The translations under genes and the position numbers were made by a program. Under the pieces are notes generated by a model. That model saw only the letters and a program-made list of their open reading frames with translations. It searched no databases and was not told where the DNA came from. Of a DNA stretch of 64,000 bases, positions 1,590 through 57,138 are shown one piece after another; within the stretch, counting starts at the first letter, position 1; each line of letters starts with the position of its first letter. This DNA comes from Cetorhinus maximus (taxonomy: Eukaryota), in the NCBI RefSeq assembly GCF_964194155.1, contig NC_135897.1:63550001-63614000 (forward strand), read 5' to 3'.

Positions 1590-1717
1590 CTTGTTTTGTT
1601 CTTCAATATCATAGATTCTAGGAAACATAGCATTATCACAGCCATCCTTCTCAATTCCCCTCAATTGAAGGTAAAATTGCCATTTTGTTTCAAAAGAAAA
1701 CCAGTTCTCACGATAAT
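1590..1717 (-). CDS. ADPRHL1: ADPRHL1/ARH2-like gene, coding exon 5 (gene continues beyond the left edge)
   Basis: 128 bp. Acceptor ttcacAG, donor AAG|GTactc. Encodes (D)YRENWFSFETKWQFYLQLRGIEKDGCDNAMFPRIYDIEEQNK, matching ADPRHL1 [22 protein letters not shown]...AIFPDNYDAEEREK. Confidence 0.93.
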
Positions 1718-4213
1718 CTGTGAATATGAGCAAATATAAGGACTGTGTAAAGGAAATAACTCACACAAAATATAGCCAATATATTTAAAATCTGCACATG
1801 AATTATTTACAGGAATAGACATTCTAATTAAAACTAATTAAAATTAAAACCTGAAAACACAGGAATTGCCAATACTTCTATCAATATTATCCTTCCATGG
1901 TCTCTCTCCACCCTACTGAAATCTTTAGGTTTACATCCTACAACCTACAATAGCCTCCACTTGCCCTCCTCTCTGCTCCAGCCTGCAGCCACCATTCTCT
2001 GCATTATGGATTTTTCTCCCCAAAACCAATTGCCACATTATCTTTATCTCTTCTTCAGAAGTCTCCTAAAATTATTTCTTGGTCATTTCCTTTAACATCA
2101 TCTAATTCCTGCTCAATGTCCATTGTTGCTCCTGTAAAGGTAATTCTGATTGTTTATCAGAAAAAAGATGCTACAAGATATAAGTCATATCTAATGAATT
2201 TGATTACATTATGCTGTGATTGCACTTTATTTTCAACCTTCAGCATAGAGGAGGGGGCTGGTTGCTCTGCTGACTTAATCATTTCTCTGATCCGAATTCA
2301 AATCTTGTTCAATAAATACAAAAGTTGTGGCTGAATGAATTTGGAATGTGTCAATGCAATTCTTGGGGAGGTGAGCCAGCACCACCAAACCAACTTAATA
2401 TGGCATTATATTGCTAGTGTTTTTTCGGAAAGACAAAGAGGACAGCAGAAAGGAGTCAAAGTGCTACACTGCTGCTCTAAGGTTGTGGAGAGGACAGATT
2501 TTTGGGGAAAGGTATGAGTTTTCTTTACCTTGTATCTTATTTATGATGTCTGAGCTGGGATGATCTGATGCTCGTTGCAGTAAGTATATATGCTTCGGTT
2601 GCCTATCTGTCATAACTCTTATGGGGAACCTTTCATGTCATGTTAGCATCCAAATTTTCTTCTTAAGTTTTGTTCATTAGGGAGCTGACTTAGCAATGTC
2701 ACATGCTATAATTATTATATTATAATTACCAGGAAGAGATGGCTTCCGAGGCAGCTGATTCCCCAATACATTATGTATTGGGATTTCTGATTAGCACCAG
2801 CCTTGGTTCATTGGTTGCATTATTATCTCTGGGTCAAAAAAATCACGGATTCATGAAACTTCTGAAACTGGAGCATACAATCGAGGGTGATATTGCCATG
2901 TAATAATGGAGGAGTGCTACATTTCAGATGAGATGTTAAGCCTGCCAATTCAGTTACATGTAAAAAATACAACCATGATGTCCTCACAGCCCAATCTGCA
3001 TATTTAAAGAAGAACCCTGCCAGTTTCAGGAAGGTTGCCTCTTGTCTGGAAAAAGTTAAAATTGGAAGAAGCTGCAGGATCAATATGAGACATCAGTGAG
3101 TGAACTCTACTGGTGATTTTAACCACTCGGCTACCTGATTTCGGCTGAGCAGCAAGGGTTAAAACTGCCCCTATTATGTCACACTTGTCCCATTTATTTT
3201 GAGAAAAAACAGAAAATAGTTTTTAAATGATAAACACTTGGTTGGTGTGTGTGTGTGTCTATATTACGCTTAATGAGCAGCTCTTCTGACTAATCATATT
3301 CAATAGTAGGTTTGATCAGCAATTACCCAATCGGGGCAGGGCAATGAATCAAGTGCCCTATTTTCTGTGAGCCAGGAAACAAGAGAACAAAGACTCAAGC
3401 TGACGAGTCAGTTGGTGAGATCTGCTAAAAGAAAGGACAGTGAAGAGCAGGCAGTTTTCATTTAGGAAGGAAGTCAACTTTGCCTCAGATGGCTGGCCAC
3501 ATTCAAGTTGAAAAGCGGTCTTAGAAAATTGGTTGCATTTTTATTATTTTGCTTATTCTCCTGGATAGAGCTGAAGTTAGTGGGATTATAGGTAAGATTT
3601 GGTCAAAATAGTTGCTCAGCACATTTACTGTAAAATATAGTGAAGGTAACTATTTATTGCAGATTTCATCTTACTAAGGTGTTATCAGTCTGCCTACTGA
3701 TAAACTGAAGAAGCACGCATCAGGAAGACATGACATCCAATTCAGATTGCAAAGGGGTCCTATTGTTATGCCCTCACCCTGCATCCCCCCATTGGATGGT
3801 ATGTTTCAATGTTGGGCAGCATGGGAACAATCTTGATCACAAGATGGAGAGATCGCTTATTAATACAAACAGTCTGCTGAATCTCAAGATAATATCCATG
3901 GCAGACCCAGTATTGTAATTCTAATTAAATTATTTTTTGGAACTATTATTATAAGATAAATGTGTGTTAAATGCAAAATCCTTTCTTTATACTCTGCAAT
4001 GAAAGTACATGAAAAATATTGCAAGGTGTGAAAACAGAAATCTTTGTGATCCGAACATTTTCTAACACATATGTAGCAAAATGTTTTCACAGTTTACATT
4101 TACTTCTATAGAAATGTTGTATTATACCTATCAGGATCTAAAAATAAATGTCCGAATAATAAGAAAAAAATAAGTCTTATTTAAGAAATAGATTGGCAAG
4201 CTGGAAACCCTAC

Positions 4214-4354
4214 CTGAAAAGTGCTTCATCTTCCTTTCACAGTGCTGTTCTGCAATTGGCATCACTTCCATCATTCTACGTCCCCACTGAACAATGGGCT
4301 TCCCTTGAATAGCATATGATGTAAAAAGTGCTGTACAGAAAGTACCTAGAAACC
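4214..4354 (-). CDS. ADPRHL1: ADPRHL1/ARH2-like gene, coding exon 4
   Basis: 141 bp, phase 1-1, ctgtAG...CAG|GTag. Encodes (G)FLGTFCTALFTSYAIQGKPIVQWGRRMMEVMPIAEQHCERKMKHFS, matching ADPRHL1 [39 protein letters not shown]. Confidence 0.95.
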
Positions 4355-4986
4355 CTACAGATGAACATGTTTAGTGTTAATGTTTCAGATAGTAAATTAG
4401 AACCAGTCTGGTGTTTTGAATAAAGTATCAGCTTTTTCCAATGCATATTTTTGAGAACATAAAATGTTTATCTGTAAGATGACATGTGCAGTTCACTATA
4501 CAGTTTGGTTCCATAATAGCAAAAATAACACAACTAAGTTCAGACAGTAGGCCTGCCATTTTGGATCCAGCTTGATTGCAAAATCCTGGTGCATAAAAGA
4601 TACCAGCGTAAAGTCAATGTATGGAATTATACAGCATGATGGTGTGCAATATATTGAAACAAACAATACAGTGCAAACCTAAATATAATGAAGGTACAAA
4701 TCTCAAACATAGACAGAATGACAGGTGAAGATATATCCTTCCCTTTCAGGTTTTCACTTTCATACCAGTCCCAAATGCTGCACTTGAATCATCCACTAGC
4801 AAATGCACAAAAGTGGATCAGAAGACACACCCTATAATCTTTGCACCCTCCTTAAGTCCTCTTACTAAATGACCCTTGATGCCACAGCTGAGTTTGAGAA
4901 CTCATTGTGCAGAGAATTGGGAAGATAAATTTGCATCTTTCTCTTAAGCCATGTTGCTGCATCACACTCAAGTGATACAATGGGTG

Positions 4987-5730
4987 GGGTGGAATTTAAT
5001 GGTCACGATGGCGGGTTCATACTCCGGCTGGACAGCCGGTGGCAACTGCACTGCGGCCATTCCCAATTGCACAGCCTACTGACTGCCATTAGGATACCCG
5101 GTTCTTGCAGGGGCATTTTCCGCATAAATTACTCCTGCAGGGTAGACAGCTTCTGGCTAATCAAAAGCCTGCAGATCTCCAGTGCCAGAAGTGCTACAGG
5201 GAGTGGTTGCCACTCCCAGTACTGCAGTAGGCCTCAGGCTGAGGGTTGTCATTGGAACACCATAATACAGGTAAAGGGGGTGGGATTGCCAAGGTCTGTC
5301 AGAGAGGGGGGTTGCTGTAAAGGGCAGCAGGGGGCTCCTGCCAATCCTTCTCTTGCCCTGTGCGGACCCCTCATGGGCACAGGATGCCCAAGGAGGGACT
5401 TGCCCCGAAACAGGCTGCAGGCTTATCTGCCAGTGTTAATCTGGTGGTTTGCCCACATTGCGTGGCCTCTGCCTGATGTTAGTTGAATACCAATGGTGGT
5501 GGCGAGGCCTTTAGGTAACCATTTAAGGGCCCCAATTGGCCTCCGTGCAGGAAGGCCGTTCTTGACCCTGTGCACCCCAGGCTTAATTGAGGGACATGGG
5601 GATCAGGAAAGTGATGGGCTCTCTACCCTGTACCTTCTCACCCCATCATGCAGCTCCCCCCCCCCACCACCCCCAACCCTGTATCCCAGTCCGCTCCTGG
5701 GGTGGTGTGGGGGACCTTATAATTTTGCCC
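4987..5730. mobile_element. Non-autonomous PIF/Harbinger-type MITE
   Basis: Imperfect terminal inverted repeats GGGTGGAATTTAA... / ...TTATAATTTTGCCC resemble the TIR of the autonomous Harbinger at 11275-15426. GC-rich interior with no real coding capacity. Confidence 0.6.
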
Positions 5731-5759
5731 AACATGCAGTATTATTATAGGAGGAGGCA

Positions 5760-6825
5760 AAGGGGGGAGTGTTATGTGTACTGGGTACAGTTCTGGCTGC
5801 TAAATTATAAAAAGGCACTGGAGAGGGTGCAAATAAAGGATATACAAGGGTGATAGCAGGAATGTGAGGTTACACCTATCAGGATAGGTTAAAACAGTTG
5901 GGTCTCTTTCCTCGACATAATGAAGGTCTTAAAGTTATGAAAGGTTTTGATAAGAGTAAAGACAGATAGGATGGTTCCATATGTGTGGAAGAGCAAAATT
6001 AGAGACCATCAATACAAGATAATCACCACGAAATCAAACAGGGAATCAGAAGAAACTTATTTACCCAGACAATGGTGAGAATGTGGAACTTGCTACCGCA
6101 GGGATTAATTGACATGGACGGAATGGGCTGAATTTTCGTCTGGGTGCGGAGGTGAGTTTCGCTGCGTGAAGGCCACAGTTTGCTTTTTATTGGAGGAAAC
6201 CTGATTTTCCTCCTCCCAAGGAATGTAAAATATTTTTCATTGATATTGCATGGAATCTTGAGGACTGTACATAGTACAAGCGCGTGAGTGGTTATGGACA
6301 ATATATGGGGGCATTAAGGGGGCATGGATGATCTATGGGGGCATGGGGTGGCACAGGCTGGCATAGGATTTTTGGGGGGGTGAGGTAGGTGAGAGGTGAG
6401 TTTTAGGGGGCCCTTAAACACTTGGGAGCTGGGATACTGTGTTGGAGAACTGAGGGGGGCCTTCTAACTGGCCCACCTTCACACCCACACTCCAGCACGG
6501 CTCGTAAACCTGACCCTGGTGTGAAAAGACGAAAATGACATGTGAACTCACACATGGGTCAGGTGTGCAGTTCATGAGCTGCGGAAATGTGCAGGTCAGG
6601 TTTTCCAAAGCCCAGAGGCACATTTGGCCCTATAGGTGCATTTAAATGTGAGGGGTTGCGGGGGGGGGTCTGGTGGTGGAGGTGCTAGATAAGTATATAA
6701 AGGAGGAGGAAACAGGGGTTATTCTGTTAGAGTTAGATGAAGAAGGATGACGGGTGGCTCATATGGAGCATAAATACTATAAATGGTTGGGTGGAATGGT
6801 CAGTTTCTGTGTAATTCTATGTATT
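5760..6825 (+). mobile_element. CR1 LINE 3' fragment, split by a MITE at 6125-6630
   Basis: Decayed ORF2 C-terminus (YWVQFW...KALERVQ; RRNLFTQTMVRMWN). CR1 3'-UTR-like sequence resumes after 6630. Confidence 0.7.
6125..6630. mobile_element. Harbinger-type MITE nested in CR1
   Basis: Termini GGGCTGAATTTTCGTCTGGG / CCCAGAGGCACATTTGGCCC are imperfect inverted repeats. CR1 sequence is continuous on either side. Confidence 0.6.
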
Positions 6826-7257
6826 ATAAATGAGATTTTAGACAAGATGCAATAAAGCAGAATCTGATACAGTAATATGTTGATTAAAGAATGTTACATA
6901 ATTTTCTACTTTATTTTTCCTAATTGTTTTACTTATGAATAGAGAGCATAGATTTGCTGTTTACTTCAATGATGTGCTATTATTTACAGTGTCTACATTT
7001 TACAACATTACACAGCTGATGTAGGCCAAGCTGTAATAACTGCTTAGTAAAATGCAGTTTTTGGTTGGTTTTTGAGTATAGCATTAGAACTAACATCCCG
7101 GTACTTAACTAACCCAGCATACTTAAATGCTATCGGCAAAAAGTATGAACAAATTTATTTAATGGTTTTAGTTATCACATTGGAACAGTTCTCTTGATAG
7201 TCATCAGACATACGCATTTATTGCTGAAAGGGTATTACTTAATCCTTTACGTGTTAC

Positions 7258-7383
7258 CTGCTGGATAACTGTGCGTCATTCGACCACATTCAATGCTGAC
7301 TTGCAGGAGGTCATTCAGTTGCTCAGCCTTTGAATAGCACATACCGACACACATTGTTCTTGCAGCTGCTCCAAATTTAGGTT
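7258..7383 (-). CDS. ADPRHL1: ADPRHL1/ARH2-like gene, coding exon 3
   Basis: 126 bp, phase 1-1, ttcacAG...CAG|GTaac. Encodes (E)PKFGAAARTMCVGMCYSKAEQLNDLLQVSIECGRMTHSYPA, matching ADPRHL1 [42 protein letters not shown]. Confidence 0.95.
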
Positions 7384-8479
7384 CTGTGAATTGGCACGTG
7401 ACAGCCGATTGATAGCGGTGCTTCAAATTCCACATCACTTGTACATACCAATGTTAGTAAACAAGCACTAATTATTAGTACATTTAAAAAGCCAACTTTT
7501 AACTGCATTGATTTAATCATGATGAATAATAAAACTTTTATCTCATTCCTTAAATATCTAAGTAGAGGAAACATTTAATGTGCTGACTGAGTTACTAAAG
7601 CCCTTGATTATGATCTGATGGTGACTTCAACCTCATTATTAATAAATATTATGTACATTAAAAATATGCCACTCAAGTTTTATTGAAATGAAAATCAATA
7701 ATATGCATTCAAACATAAAAGTGTAAACTGTACCCTTAGCTTTGAAATGGAATTTCTACTCGTATTATCACAAAATTGCTGAATACAGACTATTTACAGT
7801 GAATTGTTCAAGATTCACCAAAACGTCAAGCATTCACTAATGTCATATGTACACTTACAATGCCAGTTTATTTTGGATGCCTTTTAAAAGGACAATTAAT
7901 TGGATTATTTAAACTTTGAACAGAAGTTTGAGTTATGTACAATCTCACATTTACTGCTTTTGCTTGTAAAACAAAATACTAAAATTGAGTAGTTTTCTGT
8001 CCTGGTCATCTTTGTTTTTCCCAGAATGACATGTGTTACCAGCTACTCTGTTGATAATAGAAAAGTAAAGTATATGTACAGTCCCTACATTCCAAATTGT
8101 AACATGAAGATCTTGTCAGAGATTGCGGATTCTCTGAAATTGTTACACTGAACACCATTACCTCAAACATTGTCCACCCTACCACATCCCCCTCACACAC
8201 ACACGCACGCGCATGCAAAACCCTACACAACGTTTGAGTTAAGAGAATTCTCCTGCTCTGTTCAAACTTTCTTGCATTCAATCTTGGATCTGTGGCCTCA
8301 TTCTTTAACTCAAAGCTACTGGAACAGTTTGTTCCTATCTCACCTATCTTATTTTTCATAATTTCTATCACATTACATTGCTCTCTAATCTACATTGTTA
8401 TAACAAAAAAGATCCAATTTTTAAAGTTCTTTTTCATACCAGATAGCATCTAGCTAATCTGTGTTGTACCCATTCCAAA

Positions 8480-9410
8480 GCCTCAATATCCTTCCTACAC
8501 GCTAACTGTGTTCTTAAGATTTTACGTAGGCTCATCATGACCCCTTCGCATTTATATTCTGTATCTTTTGAGATAAAACTAGAATGTTGTTAGTTTTTTC
8601 TCACAGCCTGATCAACCTGAACTGTTGCCTTTAACGTTTTGTGTACACAAATTCCCAAATCCCTCTTCTCTTCTATGACACCGAGCCCTTTTTCATTCAA
8701 AATATAATTAATGCTTGTTTAAAACTAAAATGCATCACATTACACTTACCATAATTGAGTCCTATCTGTCACTTTTCAGCTTATTCCATTATCTTATCAA
8801 TATCCCCGACATTGCTTCCTCTGATCTTCTAAAGAATTAACTAGAGATCACATTTTGGTACCATCTGCAAATTTCAACACCACACCCTTTTGGTCTATAA
8901 CCAAATCATTGATATACATGGTGAATTGAAGTGCTCCAGAACTGAAATCCTGAGGGATATCACTATCCACTTTCAACCTAAAATCTTCTATTCTCCATTT
9001 CTCCCTTCTAAAACTTACTCTCATTTGCTATTCTCCCTGTAACTCCATATCCCTTAAACTTCACTAGCAATTTCCCATATGGTAACTTATCAAAACCTTC
9101 CTAATGTCCATTCACTATTTTCCCGATCTATCATGTCTGTTCCCTCAAAGAATTCACTGTGTTTGAATCATCTCTTTTGAAATATGAACTGACTTCTAAC
9201 TTTTTTTTGTTATTTAGATAGGTGGTCATTTCATCAAGGCTTTGTCATCCTCAGATATTAAGCAAACTAGCCTGTAATTACCCAAATTAACACCGTTTCC
9301 TTTTTAAAAAATGGATACTCCATTAGTTCCTTTTCAGTCCTCTGGCACTCAATTTAATTTCTAGGGCCTTTGCAATTTCCTCCCTCAACTACTTCAAGAT
9401 CCTGGCAGGT
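8480..9410 (-). mobile_element. Old, degraded CR1 LINE RT-region fragment
   Basis: Reverse strand shows decayed FADGTK-like and KCNVMHF-like RT motifs (ccatctgcaaattt, aaaatgcatcacattacactt). Confidence 0.55.
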
Positions 9411-9424
9411 GTTTGCTTATGCTT

Positions 9425-10065
9425 TAGAGTCATAGAGTTATACAGCACAGAAACAGGCCCTTCGGCCCATTGTGTCCATGCCGGCCATCAAGCACCTATC
9501 TATTCTAATCCCATTTTCAAGCACTTGGCCCATTACCTGTATGCTATGGCATTTCAAGTGCTCATCTAAATACTTCTTAAATGTTGTGAGGGTTGCTGCC
9601 TCTACCACCCCCTCAGGCAGTGTGTTCCAGATTCCAACCACCCTCCGGGTGAAAAAATGTTTCCTTAAATCCCCTCTAAACCTCCTGCTCCTTACCTTTA
9701 ATCTATGCCCCTTGGTTATTGACATCTCTGCTAAGGGGAAAAGTTTCTTCCTATCTATGCCCCTCATAATTTTGTATACCTCTATCAGGTACCCCCTTCA
9801 GCCTTCTCTGCTCTAAGGAAAACAACCCTAGCCCATCCATTCTCTCTTCATAGCTGAAATGCTGTAGCCCAGGCAAAATCCTGGTGAATCTCCTCTGCAC
9901 CTTCTCCAGTGCAATCACATCCTTCCTATAGCGTGGCGACCAGAGCTGCACACAGTACTCCAGTTGTGGCCTAACTAGCATTTTATACAGCTTCAACATA
10001 GCCTCACTATTCTTATATTCTACATCTCGGCTGATAAAGGTAAGTATGCCATATGCCTTCTTATC
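9425..10065 (-). mobile_element. CR1 LINE 3' end (5'-truncated)
   Basis: ORFs 9751-10110 (LYKMLVRPQLEYCVQLWSP...ALEKVQRRFTR) and 9438-9767 (GHRLKV...HFFTRRVVGIWNTLP), with a tagagt/catagagt microsatellite tail. Confidence 0.92.
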
Positions 10066-10324
10066 CAAGCCAAGCTTTGACGCTTGGTTATCCCTTAATT
10101 TAACTAACATTTAAGATTTTCATTTTATCTGCCACAGTATTTCTCATCTCTCTAGTTGGATATGGTGGTGCAGATGACTACCAACTTTCCCTACATAACA
10201 GTCATAACAGTTCCCTACATAACAAAATGATTTATTTTGTGGTATTTTGAAGTAATAGTAGGGATGTTGTAAAGGGCCATAAGCTTAAGTGCAATTGTTC
10301 TATGACTGGGCCAGCTTTCCACTG

Positions 10325-10665
10325 TCTGGTCAGAGTAGATAGGGAGAAACTGTTCCCATTGGGGGAAGGATCAAGAACAAGATGACACAAACTTAAGGTA
10401 ATTGGCAAAAGAAGTAGTGGCGACATGAGGAAAATATTTTCCTGCAGCAACTGGTTCAGATCTGGAATGCACTGCCTCGAGTGTGGTGGAGGCAGGTTCA
10501 ATTGAGGTGTTCAAAAGGGAATTGGATCATTACCTGAAAAGGAAAAAAATGCAGGGCTAAGGGGAAAAGGCAGGAGAGCGGCACTAGATGAATTACTCCT
10601 TCAGAGAGCCAGCACAGACATGATGGGCTGAATAGCTTCCTGCTGTGCTGTAACCATTCTATAAT
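10325..10665 (+). mobile_element. CR1 LINE 3' fragment
   Basis: gagtagatagggagaaactgttccc...tggaatgcactgcct...ctgtgctgtaaccattctat is a typical CR1 3' end. Confidence 0.75.
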
Positions 10666-11949
10666 TTGGCATAATCACACCTAACGGTATCATACCACCC
10701 TCTCTAAAGCTAAACTTCTTACAATTCAAGGAACATTATGGAGGGGACCAATGATCTCAGATTCCTCAATTTCATTCCTGCAAACTCTTTTAGCTGCTTT
10801 TCCAACCTCAACTTTTAAAATTTTGCAAAGAAATTATGGATATTTTGGTCTCCAAAGGGAGGACCATCCACACAGGTGCTTCAGCCACTACCTCCTTCTG
10901 ACCTCACGTCCATCTCCAATCTTCTCACAGCCTCTCACTCACTCATCCTGATTCTTTATAACTCTGTAGTTTCCTCCTTACCACTCCTAATTCTTCCTCC
11001 AAATTCAACTTTTTCTATGAGGACCATCTCTTGCTCTCTTAAGCCTCTCCCATCCAATTTGTGATCATTTAGTTATGTCTCATTATTCTATGCTCGTTAA
11101 TATTGTAACGAGGTCCATCTGATCAGGCACCATCCCCCCCCTATTCAAAACTGCCATCATCTCATACTCTTTAAAAGGCATACCTAAGCCATTTTGTTAT
11201 CACCAACTACCATCCAAACTCCAATTTCCATTTCCACTCCAAAGTCCTTAAGAGTGTTGTCACCTCCTGGCTTTGGGCGGAGTTTTCCGAGCCCGCTGGT
11301 GGCAGGTGTGATAGGTGGCATGCGCAGAAAATATGGCGTGACCTGCTTCACAACGGCGTGAAGGCAGGTCACGATTGTCTGGTCAGGCCACTACCAACGT
11401 TTCCTGCCATCGGTTGGCGGGGAGCTAATTGTAATATATCAGTATATAATTAAAAGGCCATCCCACCAGGCTCTTGGAACCCCGCCATATCATCCATCCA
11501 CGTTGGCGGGAAAGCACGCCGACTTATTTCACAACAACACACAGGCGACATGCACTTGGTGGCCTTCACTTTGGGGGAACTGAGGTGAACGAGCAGCAGC
11601 GTTCTCCAGTTTACAGACTTCGAATCCACCACCATTTATTGGACCACGGAGCAGTTGGACTGCACACGTTGTACAATCTCCTCGCCAACGCTGGCCATGT
11701 AGCAGTCACTGCTGGAGGCGCTCACAGCCCTTTGCAATCTCAGCATCCCAGTTTGGACCAGTGTCCCCCATGTCGCAGGTTGACAGGGCAGCCCTGCAGC
11801 GCACTCATCTCTGGTCATCCGAGGGGTGACCAGCACTTGCTGGGAAGCATTAAGGGGCAGTCACACACGGCCAGGAAAGCTGATAAGTACAGCCATGATA
11901 ACCACGTCTCTCTCTCTCTTTCATGCTGCAGGAAGACCATGTCAGGATC

Positions 11950-13165
11950 ATGGATCCTGGTGACCTAGCTGTATGCCCAATGGCCTACAGAGACGCTAAA
12001 AGACTGAGGAGAGAGTGACTGAGGCTCCTGGCTGCGCAAAGGCAGGAGCAGCAACCTCATGAAGGGGCAGTAGGGGTTCCCGCACACGCTGCCCAGGAGC
12101 GACAGCAAGCCGTGGCTGGTCGGCGCCTAGTGACAGCCAGGGTCTATAGACGCCGCCTGCCATTCCTGCAGATGACTGAGAACCAGTGTCGCTGACGACA
12201 TGTCTAGGGACCTAGTGGCTCACATCTGCCACTTACTGCAGGACTCAGCGCCAAGGGGACATGGAGGGCATCCACTGCCAGTGGCTGTGAAAGTGACTGT
12301 GGCGCTCAATTTCTATGCCAGTGGCTCCTCTCAGGGCTCCACAGGTGACCTCTGTGGGATTTCATAATCCGCCACCCACAAATGCATCCATGAGGTCATG
12401 GATGCCATCTTCTCCATGGCACACAACTTTGTGCATTTTGCCCGGGACTAGGACAGCCAGGATGCAAGGGCCATTGGATTCACCCTGATCTCGGGATTCC
12501 CACAGGTGCTGGGTGTGATTGACTGCACTCATGTGGCACTCAGGTCTCCGTCGCTACACTCGATGGACTACATCAACTGCAAGGGCTCACAGAACGTGCA
12601 GCTGGTGTGCGACCACCAGAAACGCATCCTGCAGGTGTGTGCACGGTTTCCAGGGAGTGTACACAACGCCTACATCCTGAGTCGCTCGCAGATCCCGGCA
12701 GCCTTCCAGAGTCCACAGAGGCTGCAGGGTTGGCTCCTTGGGGACAATGGCTGATGACACCCATGCGGCAGCCTCAGACTGCAGCAGAGCAATGCTATAG
12801 TGACGCTCATGCTGCAACTTGCTACTTGGTGGAGCAGACCATCGCGATGATGCAGATGCGGTTCTGGTGCGTGAACCAGTCTGGTGGAGCCCTGAAATAC
12901 AGTCCACAGAGGATGTCACACATCGTCATCATCTGCTGCACCCTTTACAACCTGGCGCGGCAATGGGGAGAGGAGCTGGCTGAGGAGGAGATGGAGGAGC
13001 TGGAGGTCTCCTCCAATGAGGAGGACACAGACAGGGATGAGGGTGAGGGGGTCCTCAGTGGTGATGACGATGGGGATGAGGCTCTCGCACTGGGAGGCGA
13101 GGCAGGCGTGCTCGGGAGGCTTTCATAGCCGCCACATTTGTGGAGGATGATGACGGAATGCAGTG
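11950..13165 (+). pseudogene. Harbinger (HARBI1-like, DDE_Tnp_4) transposase, disrupted
   Basis: Motifs [67 protein letters not shown] and CCTLYN, plus an acidic tail. Premature stops and frameshifts. Confidence 0.9.
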
Positions 13166-13429
13166 AGGTGTCCCCATAGGTCCTCACATCGCAGTTGTGA
13201 ATATTTGACTCCAGTCTGGCTTATGGCAGCACCAATACCCTCTGTGAGAATGCTCCTGTCATGGAGATGCAGTGGAGGCCATAACAGTTGCTCGATCACA
13301 GGAGGATGATGACAACTTGCAGTGAGGACACTCCATAGATCTTCACATAGCTTCTGAGAATGTCTGTCTTCTGTCTGGCCGAGGGCAGCTCACTTGCGCT
13401 CCATGATCAGGGCCATCTCAGAGACGCAG

Positions 13430-15150
13430 CCATGAAACTTTAGATTACTTTTACCTAACTTTCCTAATCCAGCAGCTACGTTTTTGTGCTCCCCAGACAT
13501 CCACAGCAGAGACGGAGTCAGCCTGCTGACTGTGACGCCCTGTCTCTGATGACTTTGGTGGGCGTCCTCTGGAGGTCCGAGACTTGGTGCCCCTTGGCCT
13601 GCTTTCGGGGTCCTGCTGTGTGGCAGTGGCACCCTCCTCGGCCTGTGAAACTGGATCTGCAGAGATCACAGGAATAGGGGATTTGGATCAGCCGGTCACT
13701 CCCAGAGTCGCCTGTGTGGATGGCCCCAGAGTGTGCACCTGCTGATCCTTCTCCCTATGGGTGCCTGAGGGTCCCTGGTTGACTCCGTGAGCGGAAGGGG
13801 TAGCTGGACTGAGATCGAGCTGCCCAGCACCCCTCTCATGTACACACTGTTGGAGGCCAACTATGACATAAGCAATGGAGTTAAACCCGGGCTGGAGTGC
13901 AGGAGTGACGTCCTGGACCAAGGTCTCCATAGCAGCCGCCATCCTGCCAGTGTTGACCTCAGTGCATTGGCATGCCGGTGCTATGACCTCAGCCTGAAGA
14001 TGAATGGACTCCTCCATCGTGCCTTGCAAACTGAGGAGTGCAGCGGACATCCCTTCCTGATGTTCCCGAGCTTGCCTTTGCAGCTCCAGCAACTGTGACA
14101 TGACTGAGTCTAGAGGCTCATCATCTGACTCGGACTCAATGTTCTGGCCTCCAGCAGTCCTCTGGGGACTTGGGAAGTCCCTGCCTCCGCCTGCTGTGGA
14201 TCAGAAAGTGCGATGTGCTCACCAGATTATGACCCCGAGGCTACTCTAAAGCCAGGTCCCACCGAGGTGTGTGTCTCTGCGCTGGTGGAGGGTGTGGGTG
14301 AGCACTGTGACGGGACTTCAGGGAGGGTGCCTTCAGATTCCTCTTCAGAGGTTTCTTTGGGGCTTAATTGGAGGCTGTGGGTCATGGACTCTGTTGGCTG
14401 TTTGGCAGATGTGCCTGCGAAAGCAAGGGGAGATAATTAGTGCAGGGCAGTGGCCTGTGAAAGAGGACACATCACTCACAGCTTGGTTGTCTGATGGATG
14501 TTGCACTGCTGGATCCTCACTTGGTAGAGCAGCGCCGACCTCACCGTCAGCACAGGACCGGTCCCGGTCATCGCTGACCAGCTGGATGGCTTTGTTTTCG
14601 AATTCTGTCAGAACTTTGATCTCCAGCATCCCTCCACCTGTCTGCCACTTTTCCCTCCTTTTATGTGCCAGTTTGTCCTGCATGGATAGAGGTGGGGAGA
14701 GTGCATCAGGATGCCTGCCAGGCCAGCTGATAAGTATGCCCGGCCTGTGTGGGTGGAGAGTGGTCCCATGGATGGGATGAGGACAATGATGGGGTGTGTG
14801 AAAGAATGAATGGTGATGTCCCTTGCACTGACGGTGAGTGAGGGCCCTGTGGATGTGTGATGGATTTGAGAGTATGTGAGTTTAGAGTGATGAAAAGAAT
14901 GTTTACCCTGGTGGAACGGAGGAGATCGTTCATCCTTTTGTGGCACTGGGTGGCTGTTTTCCTCTACAGGGCATTTGCGCTGACCACTGCTGCTACCACC
15001 TCCCAAGCCAGGTTGGTGAATTTGCTGCCCATCCTACAGCCAGAGTGAGGGTAGAGCACATCCTGGCAGGCCTCCAAGTCATCCAGCAGTTGCTTGAGGG
15101 GCCCATCATTGAAGCGGGGGGGCTGCGGTCTTTTTTCTTTTGCTTGCCAT
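13430..15150 (-). pseudogene. Harbinger second gene, Myb/SANT-like DNA-binding protein (spliced, disrupted)
   Basis: ATG at 15150 (MASKRKK...RFND...DVLYP...AWEVVAAVVSA...TQCHKRMNDLLRSTR), donor GTAAAC at 14906, then exon DKLAHKRREKWQTGGG...LTEFE and a coiled-coil exon (LLELQRQAREHQEGM). The 3' limit is approximate. Confidence 0.8.
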
Positions 15151-15584
15151 GTCTCCCAGGCAGCGGTGATGAATTGGTGGCGATGAGTGCTTTGCTGGTG
15201 GGTGCCTTTTAAAGATGGTGGCTGGCATGATGCAACAGCGGGGTGATGCCGAGCTGGTGAATGAGAGCCCGCTCGCTATGGAAACTTCCTGTTTCCCGGG
15301 AATGAATAAATAATGAGGCGGTCTCAGGAAGATACGGTGTGAAAAACCACCATTTTTGTTGGTGGGCAGGACTCCATTTTACCCGCTTGCTACAGCGCTT
15401 AGTGCAATTCTGAGAAAATTCCGCCCTTTGTTTCATTTCACCCTTAACTCCCTGTTTGAAATCCTTAACTCTCTTTCTCCAGTACTGTCAGCACCAAGGT
15501 TGCCCTGATCAAAGTCATGTGATATCTTCTGCAATTCAGGATACCTTCGATGACCATGGTATATTATGATGTTCAGTACAGTTG

Positions 15585-16032
15585 ATCATTTATGAAGAGA
15601 GGTTGGATAGACTTGGGTTGTTTTCGTTGGAGGAGAGAAGGGGTGACCTGGCCGAGGTGTACAAGGTTATGAGGGGCATGGACAGGGTGGATATGGAACA
15701 GCTGTTCCCCTTAGTTGAAGGGTCAGTCATGAGGGGGCATAAGTTCAAGGTGAGGGGCAGGAGGTTTAGGAGGGATGTGAGGAAAAACCTTTTTACCCAG
15801 AGGGTGGTGATGGTCTGGAATGCGCTGCCTGGGAGGGTGGTGGAGGCGGGTTGCCTCACATCCTTTAAAAAGTACCTGGATGAGCACTTGGCACGTCATA
15901 ACATTCAAGGCTATGGGCCAAGTGCTGGAAAATGGGATTAGGTAGGTAGGTCAGGTGTTTCTCACGTGTCAGTGCAGACTCGATGGGCTGAAGGGCTTCT
16001 TCTGCACTGTGTGATTCTTTGATTCTGTGATT
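15585..16032 (+). mobile_element. Young CR1 LINE 3' end
   Basis: ORF 15582-15941 (YEERLDRLGLFSLE...GHKFKV...FTQRVVMVWNALP) and a tgattc tail. Nearly identical to the copy at 40310-40666. Confidence 0.92.
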
Positions 16033-18814
16033 TTCCTCCATATACTTCAATCTACTTGTGAACAACCAGGAAGATTTGCCTCTATTTATAAGAGTATTGA
16101 AGTTGACTCATAAATTATTTTGTTTTCATTTATGCAGAGTTCACCTTGTATCATAAAGGCATCTCCAATTCAGATTAAGTAATAATCAACTTGTGATTTG
16201 GTGTTACTAAGTGTAAATTATCACTTGATTAATTTACAGTCATTGCACAGCAGTCGGTCTCTAACCCTTCACTGTGAATATCATCATACATACATTGACT
16301 AAAAGGAGCACATTGGCTATTCATGTCTACCCTGGCAGCAGCTAGTGACAAAATAGCTCAAAACAATCACACACAAACTTAACATATAAAATACACGAAG
16401 AAAACATATTCAATGAAATAGTTCCAAAACTGTAATCTCATTTCAGGTTCAATTGAGGACAATAGTGTCAACTAAATCAATTGAAAGACGAGCATATGAA
16501 ATAGGAGTAGAAGTAGGCCATTCAGCCCCTCGAGCCTGCTCTGCCATTCAATAAGATCATGGCTGTTCTGTTTGTGTTTTGAGTTCTACATTCCCAATTA
16601 CCCCCGATAATCTTTGATTCCCTTGACTAACAAGAATCTATCTACCTCGGCCTTAAAAATATTCAGTGACCCAGCTTCCACTGCCTTCTGAGGCAGAGAG
16701 TTCCAAAGTCATACAACCCTTTGAGAGAAAACAAATTCTCCTCATCTCTGTCCTATAAGGGCCACCCCCAATTTTAAAACAGTGCCCCCTAGTTCTGAAT
16801 TCACTCAACAGGAAACATCCTCTCCACATCCTCCTTGTCAAAACCATTCAGGATCTTATATACTTCAATCAAGTCACCCCTCACTCTTCTAAACTCCAGT
16901 GGAAACAAGCCCAGCCTGAGTCCAACTTATTCTCATAAGACAGTGCTCATTCCAGGTATCAATCTAGTAAACCTCCTCTGAACCACCTCCAACGCATTTA
17001 CATCCTTCCTTAAATAAGAAGGTCAAAACTGTACACAGCATTTGAAATGTGGTCTCACCAATGCCTGTATAACTGAAGCATAACATCCTTACTTTTATGT
17101 TCAAGTCCTCTCATAATAAAGCATAGCATTCCATTAGCCTTTTTGATTACATGCTGTATCTGTATACTTATGTTTTGTGACTCATGCACAAGAATGCTTA
17201 GATCCTTCTGCACCTCAGAATCCTGCAGTTATTCTCAGTTTAAGTAATACTCTGCTTTTTTATTCTTCCTGCCGAAGTGAACAACTTCACATTTTCCCAC
17301 ATTATACTCCACCTGCCAGATTTTTGCCCACCTACTCAACCTATCTATATCCATCTGCAAACTCATGTCTTCTTCACAACATATTTTCCTAACTATTTTT
17401 ATGTCTTCTACAAATTTACCTTTACTCTCCTCATCTAAGTCATTGCTGTAAATTGTAAAAGGTTAAGGCCCCAGCACAGACCCCTACGTAACTCCAGTCA
17501 TCACATCTTGCCAATCAAAGACACATTTTTGCATACTCTGTTTTCTGCCAGCCAGCCAATTTTCTATCCAGGCTAATATGTGACCCCCTACACTCTTAGC
17601 TTTTATTTTCCGCAATAACCTTTGATGTGGCACCTTATCAAATGCCTTCTGGAAATCCAAGTACAGTACATCTACAGGCTCCCCTTTATCCATATTAATC
17701 CTTCAAAGGACTCTAATAAATTGGTTAAGCATAATTTCCCTTTTGCAAAACCATGCTGACTCTTCCCGATTACCTTGAATTTTTCAATGTGCCCAGCTAT
17801 AACCTCTTTAATGATCGACTCTAACACCTTCCCCATAACAGATATCAAGCTAACTGGCCTACAGCTTCCTGTTTTCTGTCTCCCTTCCTTCTTGAATAGA
17901 GGGGTTATATTTGCTACTTTCCAGTCTGGTGGAACCTTTCCAGAAACTAGGGAATTTTGGTAAATTAACATCAACACATCTACTACCTTATTAGCCACCT
18001 CTTTTAAGACCCTAGGATGAAGTCTATCTGGACCTAGAGACTTGTCAGCCCACAGCTCCATCAGTTTGCTCAGTACCTCTTCCCAAGTGATTGTAATTTC
18101 ACCAAGTTCCTCTCTCCCCTCCACTCCTGATTTGCAGCTATTACTAGAATGTTTTTTGTCTCTTCTATAGTGAAGACAGAAGCAAATTATTTGTTCATTT
18201 TGTCTGCCATTTCCTTATTATCTACTATTAACTCCCCATTCTCACCCTCTAGAGGACCAACACTCACTTTAACTACTCTCTTCCTGTTTAAATACCTGCA
18301 GAAACTCTTGCTATCCATTTTTACATTTGTAGCTAGCTTTCTCTCATAATCTAATTTCTTTTTCCTGATTCCTTTTCTCTGCCATTCTTTATATTCTGAC
18401 AAATCATCTGATCTGCCACTCAACTTTGTGCAGTTATATGCTTTTTCCTTAAGTTTGGTGCTTTCCCTAACTTTAGTTAACCACGGATGGTGGGTCCTCC
18501 CTTTAGAATTTTTCTTTATGGTAGGAATATACTTATTCTGAGTGTTCTGAAATATCCCCTTAAAATGCCAGCCACTATTTTATTGATCTATTCCCTAGCC
18601 TAGTATCCCAGTTAACTTCAGCAAGTTCAGCTTTCATGTCCACATAGTTGCCCTTAGTTAAGTTTAAAATACTAGTCTTAGACCCACTCTTTTCCCTTTC
18701 ATATCAGATGTAAAATTCAAACATATTGTGGTCACTGCTACCTAGGGATGTCTTTACTCTGAGGTCATTAATTAATCCTGTCACATTACACAATACCAAG
18801 TCTAATATAACCTG

Positions 18815-19377
18815 AAACAAAAACAGAATTACCTGGAAAAACTCAGCAGGTCTGGTAGCATCGGCGGAGAAGAAGAGTTGATGTTTCGAGTCCTCATGAC
18901 CCTTCAACAGAACTGAGCAATATCAGGAGAAGGGTGAAATATAAGTTGGTTTAAGGTGGGGGGGGGGCGGGGAAGAGAAGTTGGAGGTGGTGGAGGGGGG
19001 GGGGTTGTAGGAACAAGCAAGCAGTGATAGGAGCAGATAATCAAAAGATGTTACAGACAAAGGAACAAAGAGGTGTTAAAGGTGGTGATATTATCTAAGA
19101 GAATGTGCTAATTAAGAATGGATGGCAGGACATTCAAGGTACAGCTCTAGTGGGGGTGGGTGGAAAGACTGACAGGGCATTACAGTTATAGATTTAAAAA
19201 TAATGGAAATAGGTGGGAAAAGAAAAATCTATATAAATTATTGGAAAAAACAAAAGGGAGGGGAAAGAAACGGAAAGGGGGTGGGGATGGAAGATGGAGT
19301 TCAAGATCCAAAGTTGTTGAATTCAATATTCAGTCTGGAAGGCTGTAAAGTGCTTAGTCGGAAGATGAGGTGCTGTT
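18815..19377 (-). mobile_element. Penelope-like element 3' fragment inserted in CR1
   Basis: Minus strand encodes the GIY-YIG C-terminus QHLIFRLSTLQPSRLNIEFNNF, followed by a pLTR. Flanked by a 7-bp direct repeat TAACCTG (18808-18814, 19378-19384). Removing it restores the CR1 reading EQVILDLVLCN. Confidence 0.85.
18875..18914 (-). ncRNA. Minimal hammerhead-ribozyme-like motif in the Penelope pLTR (variant core)
   Basis: agtt-CUGUUGA-aGGGUC-augag-GACUC-GAAAC-AUC-aacu. Stem I is agtt/aact and stem II is GGGUC/GACUC. The core departs from CUGANGA...GAAACGUC. Confidence 0.55.
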
Positions 19378-20275
19378 TAACCTGCTCTTAGATAGTTTCT
19401 TAGAGCAGCATGTTCTGGAACCAATCTTGAAAGCATCTTATGAGCTCCTCATCCAGGCTATTACTGCCAATCTGATTTTTCCACTTTATATGTAGATTAA
19501 AGTCACCCATGATTATTGCTGTCCCTTTATCACAAGCACCCAATACTTCTTTATGTATACTTTGTCCTATATTATGGTTACTGTTAGGGGGCCTGTAGAC
19601 CACTCCCACTAGTGACTTCTTTTCCCTACTATTCCTCTTCTCCACCCAAACCGATCCTTCATTCTTGTCTCCTGAACCAAGGTCACCTCTAACTATTGCA
19701 CAAATGCCATCCTTGAATAACAGTGCTACCCCTCCACCTTTACCTAGCTTCCTATTCTTCTTGAATGTCATATATCCCTCAATATTCAAGAGGCAATCCT
19801 TGTCATCCTGCAGTCATGTCTCTGTAATGTCTATCAGATCGTATTTATTTACTTTAATGTGCAATATCAATTTGTTTACTTTGTTATGGATGCTACACAC
19901 ATTCAGATACAGAGCCTTTAGTTTTGCCTTTTTGTTATCTTTGTGACATCTGGTCTTGATCCTTGGTACATTCTTAGATTTTTTTCTCTCTGTCCCTTCC
20001 TGCCATTCTCCAACCCTCATTTCCCATATTACTATTTTCCTCTCTTACCTTGTCTCTACTCTTTGATATACCACATTTGGCCCCCTGTTTCCACTATTTA
20101 GTTTAAAATCTGAACAATAGTGGTTTGTACTAAATCTTGGTTATTAATTATTCTTTATTTTCATTCCACAGTAACTCTAATTTACCTATATTTCCCCGAG
20201 TCAGGACATTAATATTTCACAGCCTTGATGTGCAATTAATAGACACTGCTTAAAATTACATGAAATGCCTCTCAC

Positions 20276-20434
20276 CTCCTCTTTTTAAGGAGGTGTATCT
20301 TTTAGAAGTGTAGTCTTTTGTCCGCACTTGGACTCCGTCTAATACTGATTTTGGTTGACGTTTCTGGTATCTATGCAATGTAATGAGATATCCCTTTGCT
20401 GCCTGGCTGCAAAGTTCTTGTAAGGAATCCCATC
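20276..20434 (-). CDS. ADPRHL1: ADPRHL1/ARH2-like gene, coding exon 2
   Basis: 159 bp, phase 1-1, tctttcAG...GAG|GTgag. Open frame (G)WDSLQELCSQAAKGYLITLHRYQKRQPKSVLDGVQVRTKDYTSKRYTSLKRG aligns loosely with ADPRHL1 DYWCLDDLYREMVRCY...RRPDPATIEG. Confidence 0.85.
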
Positions 20435-21373
20435 CTGAAAGAATAGCACAGATTGATTACTATTAGCATGCTAACGATAAGGTAATATTTGATAAAAAAA
20501 ACTTAAACGCACGAAAGAGCTAACTTAAATGCGCAATCCATTCAATAATAAAAAGAATGTAACAACAAAAAAAAATCATTTGAAGATGCTGGAAATAGGT
20601 ATCAGGTTAAAGTTCTGTTGAAGGATCCACACCCGAAAGATCAGTGTTTTCTCCTGGCTAACAGAGCTACGGTGCATTTCCCACATTTTATATGAGGGGT
20701 GTAACTCCACCGTTAACTTTTTATGTCGAAAATATACGCTATGCCGCACAATCAAAAATGATGTGATATTTGGAAAGGGAACTGATGAAAATGACGTCTT
20801 CATTTTGCTAGTGACGATAATTTTAGTCTGTTGTCTGAACTACTGCACGATTAATAAAACGGGGCTTAAGTTAGTCTTTGGAGGCACTTGGCAGTTTACC
20901 TTTCAAGTGCAAATATGAATGAAATGTAGCATTCTGCTTGGGATTTTTGTTTCGTTTTAGAATGCTACTTTTGAGAAATGAGTTTAAGGAGCCCACGAGC
21001 TTGTTATAGTACCTGGAAAGGGCGGTGTCGTGTTAATCGTTTCAATCGGGCATTTAGCTACGTTAACAGCGCTCAGATTGCATGTTGTCGTTCCAAAATC
21101 GCTCTTTAGCGGTCCGAAGTATCAGACAGTGGTGTCAGAACCACACTTTTAACATTTGTATCTTCACTGATAAAATAACGTGAAGGCTATCTGTGCAGGG
21201 GAATGGTGTGAATGAGCTGTGTTTATGGGTGAGCAGAGATATCAAGCAGTTGATGGACAGCAATGCTTCAATATCACATCTAACAGGGACGAAAGAGAAG
21301 AGAGAAAAAGGGATACAAGGCAAGAAACAAAAGAGCAAAAGGAAAGGAAAGCGAACACCAAAGGAAAACTCAC

Positions 21374-21584
21374 CAGAAGCTAATGCTTCAGCAGTTGCCA
21401 TGTGCATGAGAGTATCAAATGGAACCTGCCACTGAAGTGATTTCGAAATCATCGTGTCAATCTCTCCTGATAAATCAGTCTCCGTCAATTTTAGCCCAGG
21501 TTTGTTGCACTCGTGGGAAATGTTGTGATAGCCCATGACATTCCCAAGCGCTCCGAGCACCATGGCAGCTTCGTACCTCTCCAT
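21374..21584 (-). CDS. ADPRHL1: ADPRHL1/ARH2-like gene, coding exon 1
   Basis: ATG at 21584, 211 bp, donor TG|GTGAGT. MERYEAAMVLGALGNVMGYHN...WQVPFDTLMHMATAEALAS matches ADPRHL1 [21 protein letters not shown]...WPVSDNTIMHIATAEALTT. Confidence 0.93.
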
Positions 21585-21679
21585 TGGATCAGCTCCCAAA
21601 ACCCCGAACTGACAGTCAGACTTCCCTCGACTGTTTCGCAAATCCACGCCGAGGTCTAAATGTACAGTCTGGGCTTCTG

Positions 21680-21720
21680 GAGTCCCGCCCCACTCCCTGC
21701 CGATTGGACCTTTAAAACCA
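21680..21720 (-). promoter_or_regulatory. Putative proximal promoter of the ADPRHL1-like gene (GC box and CCAAT box)
   Basis: GGGGCGGG (+ strand cccgcccc, about 21683) and CCAAT (+ strand attgg, about 21703) lie 100-120 bp upstream of the ATG. Confidence 0.4.
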
Positions 21721-24519: not shown

Positions 24520-24650
24520 CAAACACCATAATAACTGTTCTGAAGAAGATTCATATTCGACTCGAAATGTAAACTCTGTTTCTCTCTCCACAGATGCCAG
24601 ACGTGCTGTTTTTATTTCAGATTTCCGGCATCGGCAGTATTTTGCTTTTA
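24520..24650 (+). mobile_element. Penelope pLTR remnant with hammerhead-like motif
   Basis: gtt-CTGAAGA-agattc-atattc-gactc-GAAA-tgta-aac followed by tctgtttctctctccacagatgc...gcagtattttgctttt. Same terminal sequence family as 18815-18914 and 62030-62200. Confidence 0.6.
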
Positions 24651-25019
24651 TCATAATATATAACCATTTGTGGGGAAATACATACAGAAATCTTCTCATC
24701 ATTACTAGGTAAGGCTACCTAATCTTGAAGGTTTACTTTAGCTGTGAAGCTATAAGAGCGAAAGGGACAAGAGGGATCTTGGCCCCAGTTGGACATTTTT
24801 CAGCATGCTTAGCAAAAATTTGGTAGGCAGTACTTAGCCCAACAGACCAGAATTTTACCTACAACCACCCATTGAATATATCCAGATTAGTCATAAGACA
24901 CTTTCTTACTCAAAGAAAAGGATGACCACTGCATCACTAAAAAGAGATTGGAGGTATAGCTGTAGATCTACAATTTAGAAACAGGGAATGAAATACAACC
25001 ATACATTTTGTAAAAGAAA

Positions 25020-26235: not shown

Positions 26236-26238
26236 ATG
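26236..26238 (+). CDS. DCUN1D1: DCUN1D1 first coding exon (initiator ATG only)
   Basis: gaagATG|GTGAGT lies inside the CpG island. The phase-0 join to exon 2 gives MNKLKSSQ, as in vertebrate DCUN1D1. Confidence 0.8.
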
Positions 26239-34285: not shown

Positions 34286-34502
34286 AACAAGCTGAAGTCC
34301 TCACAGAAGGATAAAGTGCGTCAGTTTATGGTCTTCACACAGTCCAGTGAGAAAACTGCAGTATGTTGTTTATCGCAGAATGACTGGAAGTTAGATGTTG
34401 CTACAGACAATTTTTTTCAAAATCCAGAACTTTATGTTCGTGAAAGTCTGAAAGGTTCATTGGATAGAAAGAGATTAGAACAATTATACCATAGATACCG
34501 AG
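34286..34502 (+). CDS. DCUN1D1: DCUN1D1 (DCN1-like protein 1) exon 2, UBA-like domain
   Basis: 217 bp, tatgcAG...GAG|[78 protein letters not shown] has DCUN1D1-type rather than DCUN1D2-type residues. Confidence 0.97.
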
Positions 34503-56915: not shown

Positions 56916-56969
56916 TTTCGAGAAAGATTAGCACATTCTGAGTAAATGTGTACTTTTCTTTGCTTTTAG

Positions 56970-57138
56970 ATCCGCAAGATGAAAATAAAATAGGAATAGA
57001 CGGTATTCAGCAGTTCTGTGATGATTTAGGATTGGATCCAGCCAGTATCAGTGTACTGGTCGTTGCATGGAAATTTCGAGCAGCCACACAGTGTGAATTC
57101 TCAAAACAAGAATTCATAGATGGTATGACAGAATTAGG
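56970..57138 (+). CDS. DCUN1D1: DCUN1D1 exon 3, start of the PONY/cullin-binding domain (gene continues beyond the right edge)
   Basis: 169 bp, cttttAG...GG|GTAAGT. (D)[56 protein letters not shown], in phase with exon 2. Confidence 0.97.

Follow-up and report, generated by a model that had tools for sequence, protein, structure and literature searches.

The ADP-ribosylhydrolase (ARH) family has been described with three members (PMC9738213). ARH1 requires E25, S54, D55, D56, D302, D304 and S305, its metal motifs are 54-SDDT-57 and 302-DSDS-305 (PMC9738213), and its adenosine loop carries Tyr263 and Ser270 (PMC6309922). ADPRHL1 (ARH2) is a cardiac pseudoenzyme (PMC4990356, PMC7390403) that localises to the Z-disc (PMC4990356), and the di-arginine in its loop SSEGRGGRRGH is indispensable in the frog heart (PMC7390403). 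Its exon 8 was regarded as a prediction that is little expressed in the tadpole heart (PMC7390403). Ohnologs that were kept in slow-evolving fishes and lost in mammals have been reported, including [GPC5L], [SOX15] and [GRK1B] (PMC8040251). In this work, an ADPRHL1-like gene (copy B) of the basking shark, Cetorhinus maximus (assembly GCF_964194155.1), was compared with these systems. The window, i.e., the whole analysed stretch of 64,000 nt, corresponded to contig NC_135897.1 (C20), 63550001-63614000, and coordinates given without a contig refer to it. The conserved ADPRHL1 on contig C16 of the same assembly is termed copy A. Copy B was almost certainly an intact paralog of ADPRHL1 and was apparently a real, conserved and undescribed fourth ARH-family gene of fishes.

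Copy B shared with ADPRHL1 the ARH fold, seven intron positions, 45-49% domain identity, the substitutions C129F and S264E with respect to ARH1, a seven-exon core, a stop codon directly following the exon 7 donor and a long last exon with three tail elements. It differed from ADPRHL1 in the absence of the Arg-Arg-Gly-His loop, in a diverged exon 2, in its position in a LAMP3/DCUN1D1 block, in having lost D55 but kept D304, which is the reverse of copy A, and in not being found in tetrapods among the matches listed. The likeness to ADPRH/ARH1 (PDB 3HFW, 6G28) comprised the fold, 35% identity to shark ARH1 and the shark equivalents of E25, D56 and D304. ARH1 differed in having three coding exons versus eight, whereas copy B had PFDT and ESDA as metal motifs, a replaced Tyr263–Ser270 loop and an 840-aa tail; moreover, ARH1 fell outside the clade of copy A, copy B and cyclostome proteins (100/100). 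The ohnologs kept in slow-evolving fishes showed the same pattern of retention and loss as copy B and belong to the same paralogon 16 (PMC8040251).

Five exons of copy B were located on the minus strand of the window. Exon 1 (21374..21584, 211 nt) started with the ATG at 21584 and encoded E25 as well as P55-F56-D57-T58, the altered metal motif, and exon 2 (20276..20434, 159 nt) was of phase 1-1. Exon 3 (7258..7383, 126 nt) carried FGAA and ECGRMTH, exon 4 (4214..4354, 141 nt) carried GFLG..CTALF and QGKP.VQWGR, and exon 5 (1590..1717, 128 nt) carried KWQFYL and was followed by an intron of 16,983 nt. These exons summed to 765 nt and 255 codons with 0 stops, with GT donors in all of them and AG acceptors in exons 2-5. 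The original prediction, made from the letters of the window, had described five in-phase, stop-free exons with canonical splice sites, and the spliced sequence bore this out; likewise, exons 3-5 contained, on the minus strand, all seven diagnostic motifs that it named. Exons 6, 7 and 8 (133, 154 and 2521 nt; C20:63534606-63530372) were sited 15-20 kb past the left end of the window. The 8-exon coding sequence of 3573 nt was translated exactly into the database protein P0001 (1190 aa), which is held in NCBI as 'uncharacterized protein LOC144693854 [Cetorhinus maximus]'. As to the suggestion of a possibly uncharacterised ARH-family member, no published description of the paralog was found (subscription journals, bioRxiv supplements and the rest of the Lamb supplement lay outside the search), but the database already contained an unnamed model of the gene. 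The intron phases were 1,1,1,1,0,1,2. The lengths of exons 3-6 (126, 141, 128 and 133 nt) were equal in copy A, and those of exons 1 and 2 differed from copy A by 3 and 6 nt; the predicted ADPRHL1-like intron layout was thus confirmed. Read-through of the exon 7 donor reached a stop immediately, so a short form of 351 aa is possible, and the chimaera and paddlefish database models terminated at this very point. Exon 2 was the least conserved exon, with 47% identity within copy B proteins and 18% to copy A, and the low-confidence stretch 100-125 of the structural model (below) fell in this region. It was possibly skippable, since three database models from relatives (P0004, P0006 and P0009) lacked it.

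When the genome was searched with exon 4, three matches were obtained, namely exon 4 itself, C16 (54%) and C11 (44%). The C16 gene was an ADPRHL1 complete in seven exons, RRGH loop included, and the C11 gene was the three-exon ARH1. Over the ARH domain, copy B was 47% identical to copy A and 45% to macaque ADPRHL1, and copy A was 67% identical to macaque ADPRHL1. Hence, the separate, more conserved ADPRHL1 that the original prediction called for was present in the same genome. Since this gene, near GRTP1 and LAMP1, sat on another contig, copy B was regarded as a paralog; it was not the ortholog of human ADPRHL1, whose GRTP1/LAMP1 position was held by the C16 copy, and it fell in a separate clade. 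All seven introns were common to copies A and B, which argued against a retrocopy. No further full ADPRHL1 copy was found when the genome was searched with two long ARH2-containing proteins, in a search whose stricter first pass could let weak copies escape.

Related proteins (264) were collected from word-indexed sequence searches, with 13 of 13, the best 120 of 217 and the best 120 of 136 matches listed, and from a cluster look-up. Hidden Markov models (HMMs) of the classes, trained on 50 rows of the tree, assigned 38 proteins to the B type, 219 to the A type, four to ARH1 and three to unrelated proteins. The source names of all 38 B-type proteins were those of sharks, rays, chimaera, coelacanth, bichirs, sturgeons/paddlefish, gar, tarpon and eels. 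An index-free phmmer search of 1.84 billion representatives gave 917 matches; among the best 150 of them, 133 were new and three (gar, eel and reedfish) were additional B-type proteins. No B-type protein with a tetrapod, lungfish, osteoglossomorph or clupeocephalan name occurred among the matches listed, which cover predicted proteins rather than genomes and come from clusters that can hide members. Copy B was likely lost in land vertebrates. The apparent loss went beyond the mammals originally proposed and took in every tetrapod, lungfish and non-elopomorph teleost of the sample. A tree of 52 chosen rows trimmed to the ARH domain (356 columns) contained a B clade of 18 rows with full support (100/100) and a stem of 0.69, which branched broadly as the species tree, with bony-fish B (98/89) as sister to cartilaginous-fish B (100/99). 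Copy A, copy B and the cyclostome proteins were united against the four ARH1 rows, indicating that copy B belongs with ARH2 and not with ARH1. The ARH tree, which had been suggested as a check, thus placed copy B in its own clade, apart from orthologous ADPRHL1. A duplication confined to cartilaginous fishes was rejected by the approximately unbiased (AU) test (p-AU 4.7e-50), and tree and test together placed the A/B duplication before the split of sharks and bony fishes; a topology joining copy A with cyclostomes was not rejected (p-AU 0.436). UniProt-derived records label the chimaera, coelacanth and eel B proteins 'ADP-ribosylhydrolase like 1', and a search of the ESM Atlas returned generic ARH clusters only.

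Expression was explored with contigs from four runs of related species (95-99% alike, from three studies), whose RNA status was a guess, run X3 being flagged as probably DNA. Exons 6 and 7 were joined in all four runs and exons 7 and 8 in three of the four, at the predicted GT-AG sites, and the loose end at exon 6 matched the end of exon 5 in three of the four runs. In X1 and X2, the depth in the window tracked the five exon bins; in X1 it was 17-23 in these bins versus 0-2.7 in most repeat-poor intron bins, and in X3 the exon 2 bin was without cover. X1 also covered most of intron 7 at about one-tenth of the depth, which fits the short form or pre-mRNA. No run of the same species that contained the locus was recorded as RNA. 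In run X12, which has a same-species label and 11 million letters, the five exon bins were uncovered; this was evidence for neither side. In the last 320 codons of the tail, 17 nonsynonymous and 14 synonymous codon changes were counted, i.e., a rough ratio of 0.33, from at least 33 coding differences among the rows listed for X1.

The gene order on C20 was a LAMP3-like gene (+, 63.445 Mb), whose best PDB match was LAMP3, MCCC1 (+, 63.48), copy B (-), DCUN1D1 (+) and a P4-ATPase exon (-, 63.82), which was assumed from its position to be ATP11B. DCUN1D1 adjoined copy B, as had been predicted; the two genes were arranged head-to-head rather than in tandem, with about 4.65 kb from ATG to ATG. On C16, GRTP1 (26.20-26.24 Mb, 74-79% identity) and a LAMP1-like gene (26.59 Mb) lay 0.6 and 0.23 Mb, respectively, from copy A (26.83-26.88 Mb). 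C16 was taken as the LAMP1 block because GRTP1 was there and a LAMP exon on C8 appeared more LAMP2-like, and an assignment of copy A to the X-type LAMP2 block was rejected on the same grounds. There was no LAMP2 among the PDB matches. Five fused gene models of amniotes (P0082, P0201, P0237, P0239 and P0195) showed DCUN1D2, ADPRHL1 and GRTP1 in tandem, the first four of them the pair DCUN1D2/ADPRHL1, and human ADPRHL1 presumably lies between LAMP1/GRTP1 and DCUN1D2. With LAMP1 so placed, these models indicated that the order LAMP-ADPRHL1-DCUN1D recurs in both blocks, with DCUN1D flipped. Both copies thus sat in paralogous blocks with other gene pairs, LAMP3 on C20 and the LAMP1-like gene on C16. 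In the map of paralogon 16, quad B holds LAMP3, SOX2 and ATP11B, quad D holds LAMP1, SOX1 and ATP11A, and quads (A,B) and (C,D) were separated at the first round of whole-genome duplication, 1R (Lamb 2021, PMC8040251). If copy B is an ohnolog, it would therefore date to 1R; ADPRHL1 and DCUN1D1 had 0 occurrences in the examined part of the PMC8040251 supplement.

In view of the paired synteny and the separate clade, the origin of copy B by whole-genome duplication, as originally proposed, was supported; copy B was very probably an ohnolog from the vertebrate genome doubling, and the duplication was probably 1R rather than the second round (2R), as the paralogon map points to. Several observations weigh against this account. 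The cyclostomes were placed outside A and B (90/92, unstarred), which favours 2R; copy A formed a single clade in only 47% of bootstrap trees (such a clade was not rejected, p-AU 0.497); and 1R and 2R were indistinguishable in the tree, which leaves the duplication undated. The synteny refers to the genome of Cetorhinus maximus only. DCUN1D1 and copy B were head-to-head versus the tandem DCUN1D2/ADPRHL1 of amniotes, and a local inversion must be assumed for this difference. A conserved ADPRHL1 adjoining DCUN1D2 had been anticipated and did not materialise, as DCUN1D2 was not found in the searches of this assembly, including C16:26.60-26.99 Mb, and no TFDP match was found on C16; some of the human-13q34-type block may have been lost or moved in this shark, or be missing from its assembly. 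Splice-joint support was limited to exons 5-8, with exons 1-5 represented by bin depth. A rival history is a segmental or transposed duplication of ADPRHL1 in the jawed-vertebrate stem, the copy having reached the paralogous block by chance or through a small block duplication independent of genome doubling. The best tree, in which A and B split after the cyclostomes, whereas the block pair maps to 1R, and the orientation relative to DCUN1D would agree with it. Such a history is nevertheless unlikely: both copies lie beside a LAMP ohnolog, copy B lies between LAMP3 and DCUN1D1 in the manner of amniote ADPRHL1 (with the human order presumed), the 1R topology was not rejected, and the seven shared introns exclude a retrocopy. 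That copy B is a sole, translocated ADPRHL1 or a decaying pseudogene is barely conceivable. The genome search with Pfam ADP_ribosyl_GH gave seven matches without the copy B locus, which indicated strong divergence; against this stand the C16 gene and the separate clade, which disposed of translocation, 1190 open codons, the contigs spliced in relatives, domain identities of 71% with the ortholog of chimaera and 58% with that of coelacanth, and the ratio in the distal tail. Disrupted downstream exons lacking spliced transcripts, the other danger foreseen for the prediction, were not encountered, as the exons were intact and spliced in related species.

The structure of copy B was modelled by AlphaFold2 with a 56-row alignment. 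Residues 1-350 were mostly confident, two helices were found at 369-413, and the predicted local distance difference test (pLDDT) was below 50 over 100-125 and 442-1172. In Foldseek, the best matches of the model were human ARH1 structures (E 8.7e-19, template modelling (TM) score 0.79 by target length). Together with a phmmer match of residues 1-351 to human ARH1 (E 9.6e-72) and a precomputed PF03747 assignment, this made copy B a member of the ARH fold family, whose all-alpha domain comprises about 350 aa. The ARH1 metal motifs were not preserved: SDDT was replaced by PFDT and DSDS by ESDA, the residues present being E25, P55, F56, D57, E301, D303 and A304. In the adenosine loop, Tyr263, Ser264, Ser269 and Ser270 were replaced by S262, E263, S268 and K269, and G300 of ARH1 corresponded to W299, which was W in 8 of the 11 cartilaginous-fish rows. 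Across B rows, D55 was F, L or I in 17/17 rows with the column and S54 was P in 16/17, and both D15 and the H-D after the loop were lost. The di-arginine was Ser-Lys in most sharks, with His changed to Val, and Arg-Lys in coelacanth and sturgeon B; the Arg-Arg-Gly-His loop was absent from all 38 B-class proteins and present in 206 of the 219 A-class proteins. Because S54/D55 were replaced by P/F, the adenosine loop was replaced and G300 was W, the cleft would be unable to hydrolyse ADP-ribosyl-arginine. As judged from the sequence, copy B very likely lacks hydrolase activity and would be a pseudoenzyme with a remodelled cleft. Other residues speak for an enzyme, or a binder of metal or an ADP-ribose-type ligand, with changed specificity. 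Shark B retained E25 (8/11), D56 (11/11) and D304 (10/11); the D304 equivalent was D/E in 17/18 B rows versus 1/28 A rows; D302 was present in 7/7 bony-fish B rows; and coelacanth B retained GDSDST, the full second ARH1 metal motif. Copy B thus retains acidic positions that are missing from copy A, so some metal binding or activity may persist. Taken as a whole, a retained enzyme or ligand binder is improbable, as the losses at S54, D55, D15 and H-D and the W at G300 oppose it, the loop region 100-125 was unstable in the model and variable, and most bony-fish B rows were without E25 and D56. In a separate observation on ADPRHL1, shark copy A (C16:26832582-26832795) and lamprey P0053 retained the full SDDT, which became SDNT in mammals; the loss of the catalytic residues was stepwise.

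The tail of copy B was disordered in the model over 442-1172. The tails of 19 B proteins and 24 long A isoforms (tetrapods, teleosts) served as input for an alignment, rows without a regular-expression match being omitted from its first version. Three elements were common to A and B: a post-domain helix, RPT(R/K)FQLLQx(R/K)F, and a C-terminal KY..SY.D...(R)A.D, which was missing in one of the 24 A rows (P0234). HMMs of the tail elements matched exon 8 of copy B (E 5.9e-38 and 7.5e-18). Because these elements were common to A and B, the long exon predates the duplication. Near shark copy A, nothing significant was found in 390 kb of N-free, repeat-rich sequence including 110 kb downstream (best E 0.23). 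The elasmobranch A proteins displayed were all short, with ends unlike those of bony-vertebrate A, and no elasmobranch A protein occurred among the 120 listed of 136 long-protein matches. This suggests that elasmobranchs obtain the tailed form from copy B alone. A more extended scenario is tentative and somewhat doubtful: a fourth ARH gene from 1R would have inherited an ancestral working tail, sharks and rays would have divided the roles between a short A and a long B, and tetrapods would have lost B and make both forms by splicing. If true, the three tail motifs would be conserved binding sites, with a real function for the little-studied long human ADPRHL1 isoform. The retention of these motifs since before the shark/bony-fish split supports the view that the 'predicted' exon 8 form of human ADPRHL1 is real, and the motifs offer specific peptides for tests.

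The favoured account as a whole, that copy B is an ADPRHL1 ohnolog, likely of 1R age, serving as a non-catalytic ARH-fold scaffold with a long disordered tail, is held with good though not full confidence. The ARH-fold domain would be catalytically dead and would act as a scaffold, its remodelled cleft, with Ser-Lys at the site of the essential Arg-Arg of ADPRHL1, would bind a protein partner different from the one bound by ADPRHL1, and the tail would tether partners via the three short motifs common to the long ADPRHL1 isoform. By analogy with ADPRHL1, the tail partners would most likely be cytoskeletal or sarcomeric, and the chance of a muscle or cytoskeletal partner for copy B is about even. 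Copy B adds a fourth member to the ARH family in fishes and provides a natural variant of the pseudoenzyme, with the same fold, another cleft and no loop of the kind essential in the frog heart. For annotation, it represents hidden paralogy, with B proteins filed under the name of ADPRHL1, and its retention fits a common pattern of ohnologs in slow-evolving fishes.

Other features of the window were also recorded. A CpG-rich, AT-rich stretch (20001..25000) covered exon 1 of copy B and its upstream sequence, with CpG observed/expected values of 0.60-0.83 per kb versus 0.1-0.45 in most other kb; from its composition, it was likely a promoter region unmethylated in the germ line. The likely first coding exon of DCUN1D1 (26236..26238, +) consisted of the ATG followed by a GT donor in a CpG island, and the coding part of human DCUN1D1 exon 1 is, as we assume, the ATG only. 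DCUN1D1 exon 2 (34286..34501, +) matched DCN1-like protein 1 (8or2_F, E 1.9e-40) and was 69% identical to a snake DCUN1D2-type model. Exon 3 was approximate (56963..57136, +), and the gene ran past the right end of the window. Intron 2 of copy B contained a GC-rich remnant of a PIF/Harbinger-like DNA transposon (11400-15300; Pfam DDE_Tnp_4, E 1.2e-11), flanked by fragments of long interspersed nuclear elements (LINEs), which we take to be CR1-like. In a DCUN1D1 intron (52224-52863, -), two overlapping cysteine-rich open reading frame (ORF) fragments had no Pfam match and gave the impression of possibly being a degraded envelope-like retroelement gene.

Outside the window, the last exon of copy A (C16:26878045-26878193) ended about five codons short of the stop seen in other sharks. 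This exon had a damaged duplicate at C16:28080400-28080900, 1.2 Mb off, in which a short run contained one A less and the longer end was present; the early stop may therefore reflect either an error in a homopolymer or a recent change. A third ADPRHL1 copy at C16:28.08 Mb was rejected, as it was a lone damaged fragment of copy A exon 7 and 3' flank, and 200 kb yielded no further exon. The last exon of ADPRHL2/ARH3, whose main locus was on C22, had a near-identical copy at C3:23713456-23713569 beside an ORF like that of a long terminal repeat (LTR) retroelement, probably a partial duplicate or retrocopy. Molluscs had proteins of 800-1000 aa with two tandem ARH1-type domains (P0136, P0137, P0139 and P0140). 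A BTB-kelch gene, which we liken to KBTBD6/7, was located at C16:26809465-26818080, about 15 kb upstream of copy A and head-to-head with it.

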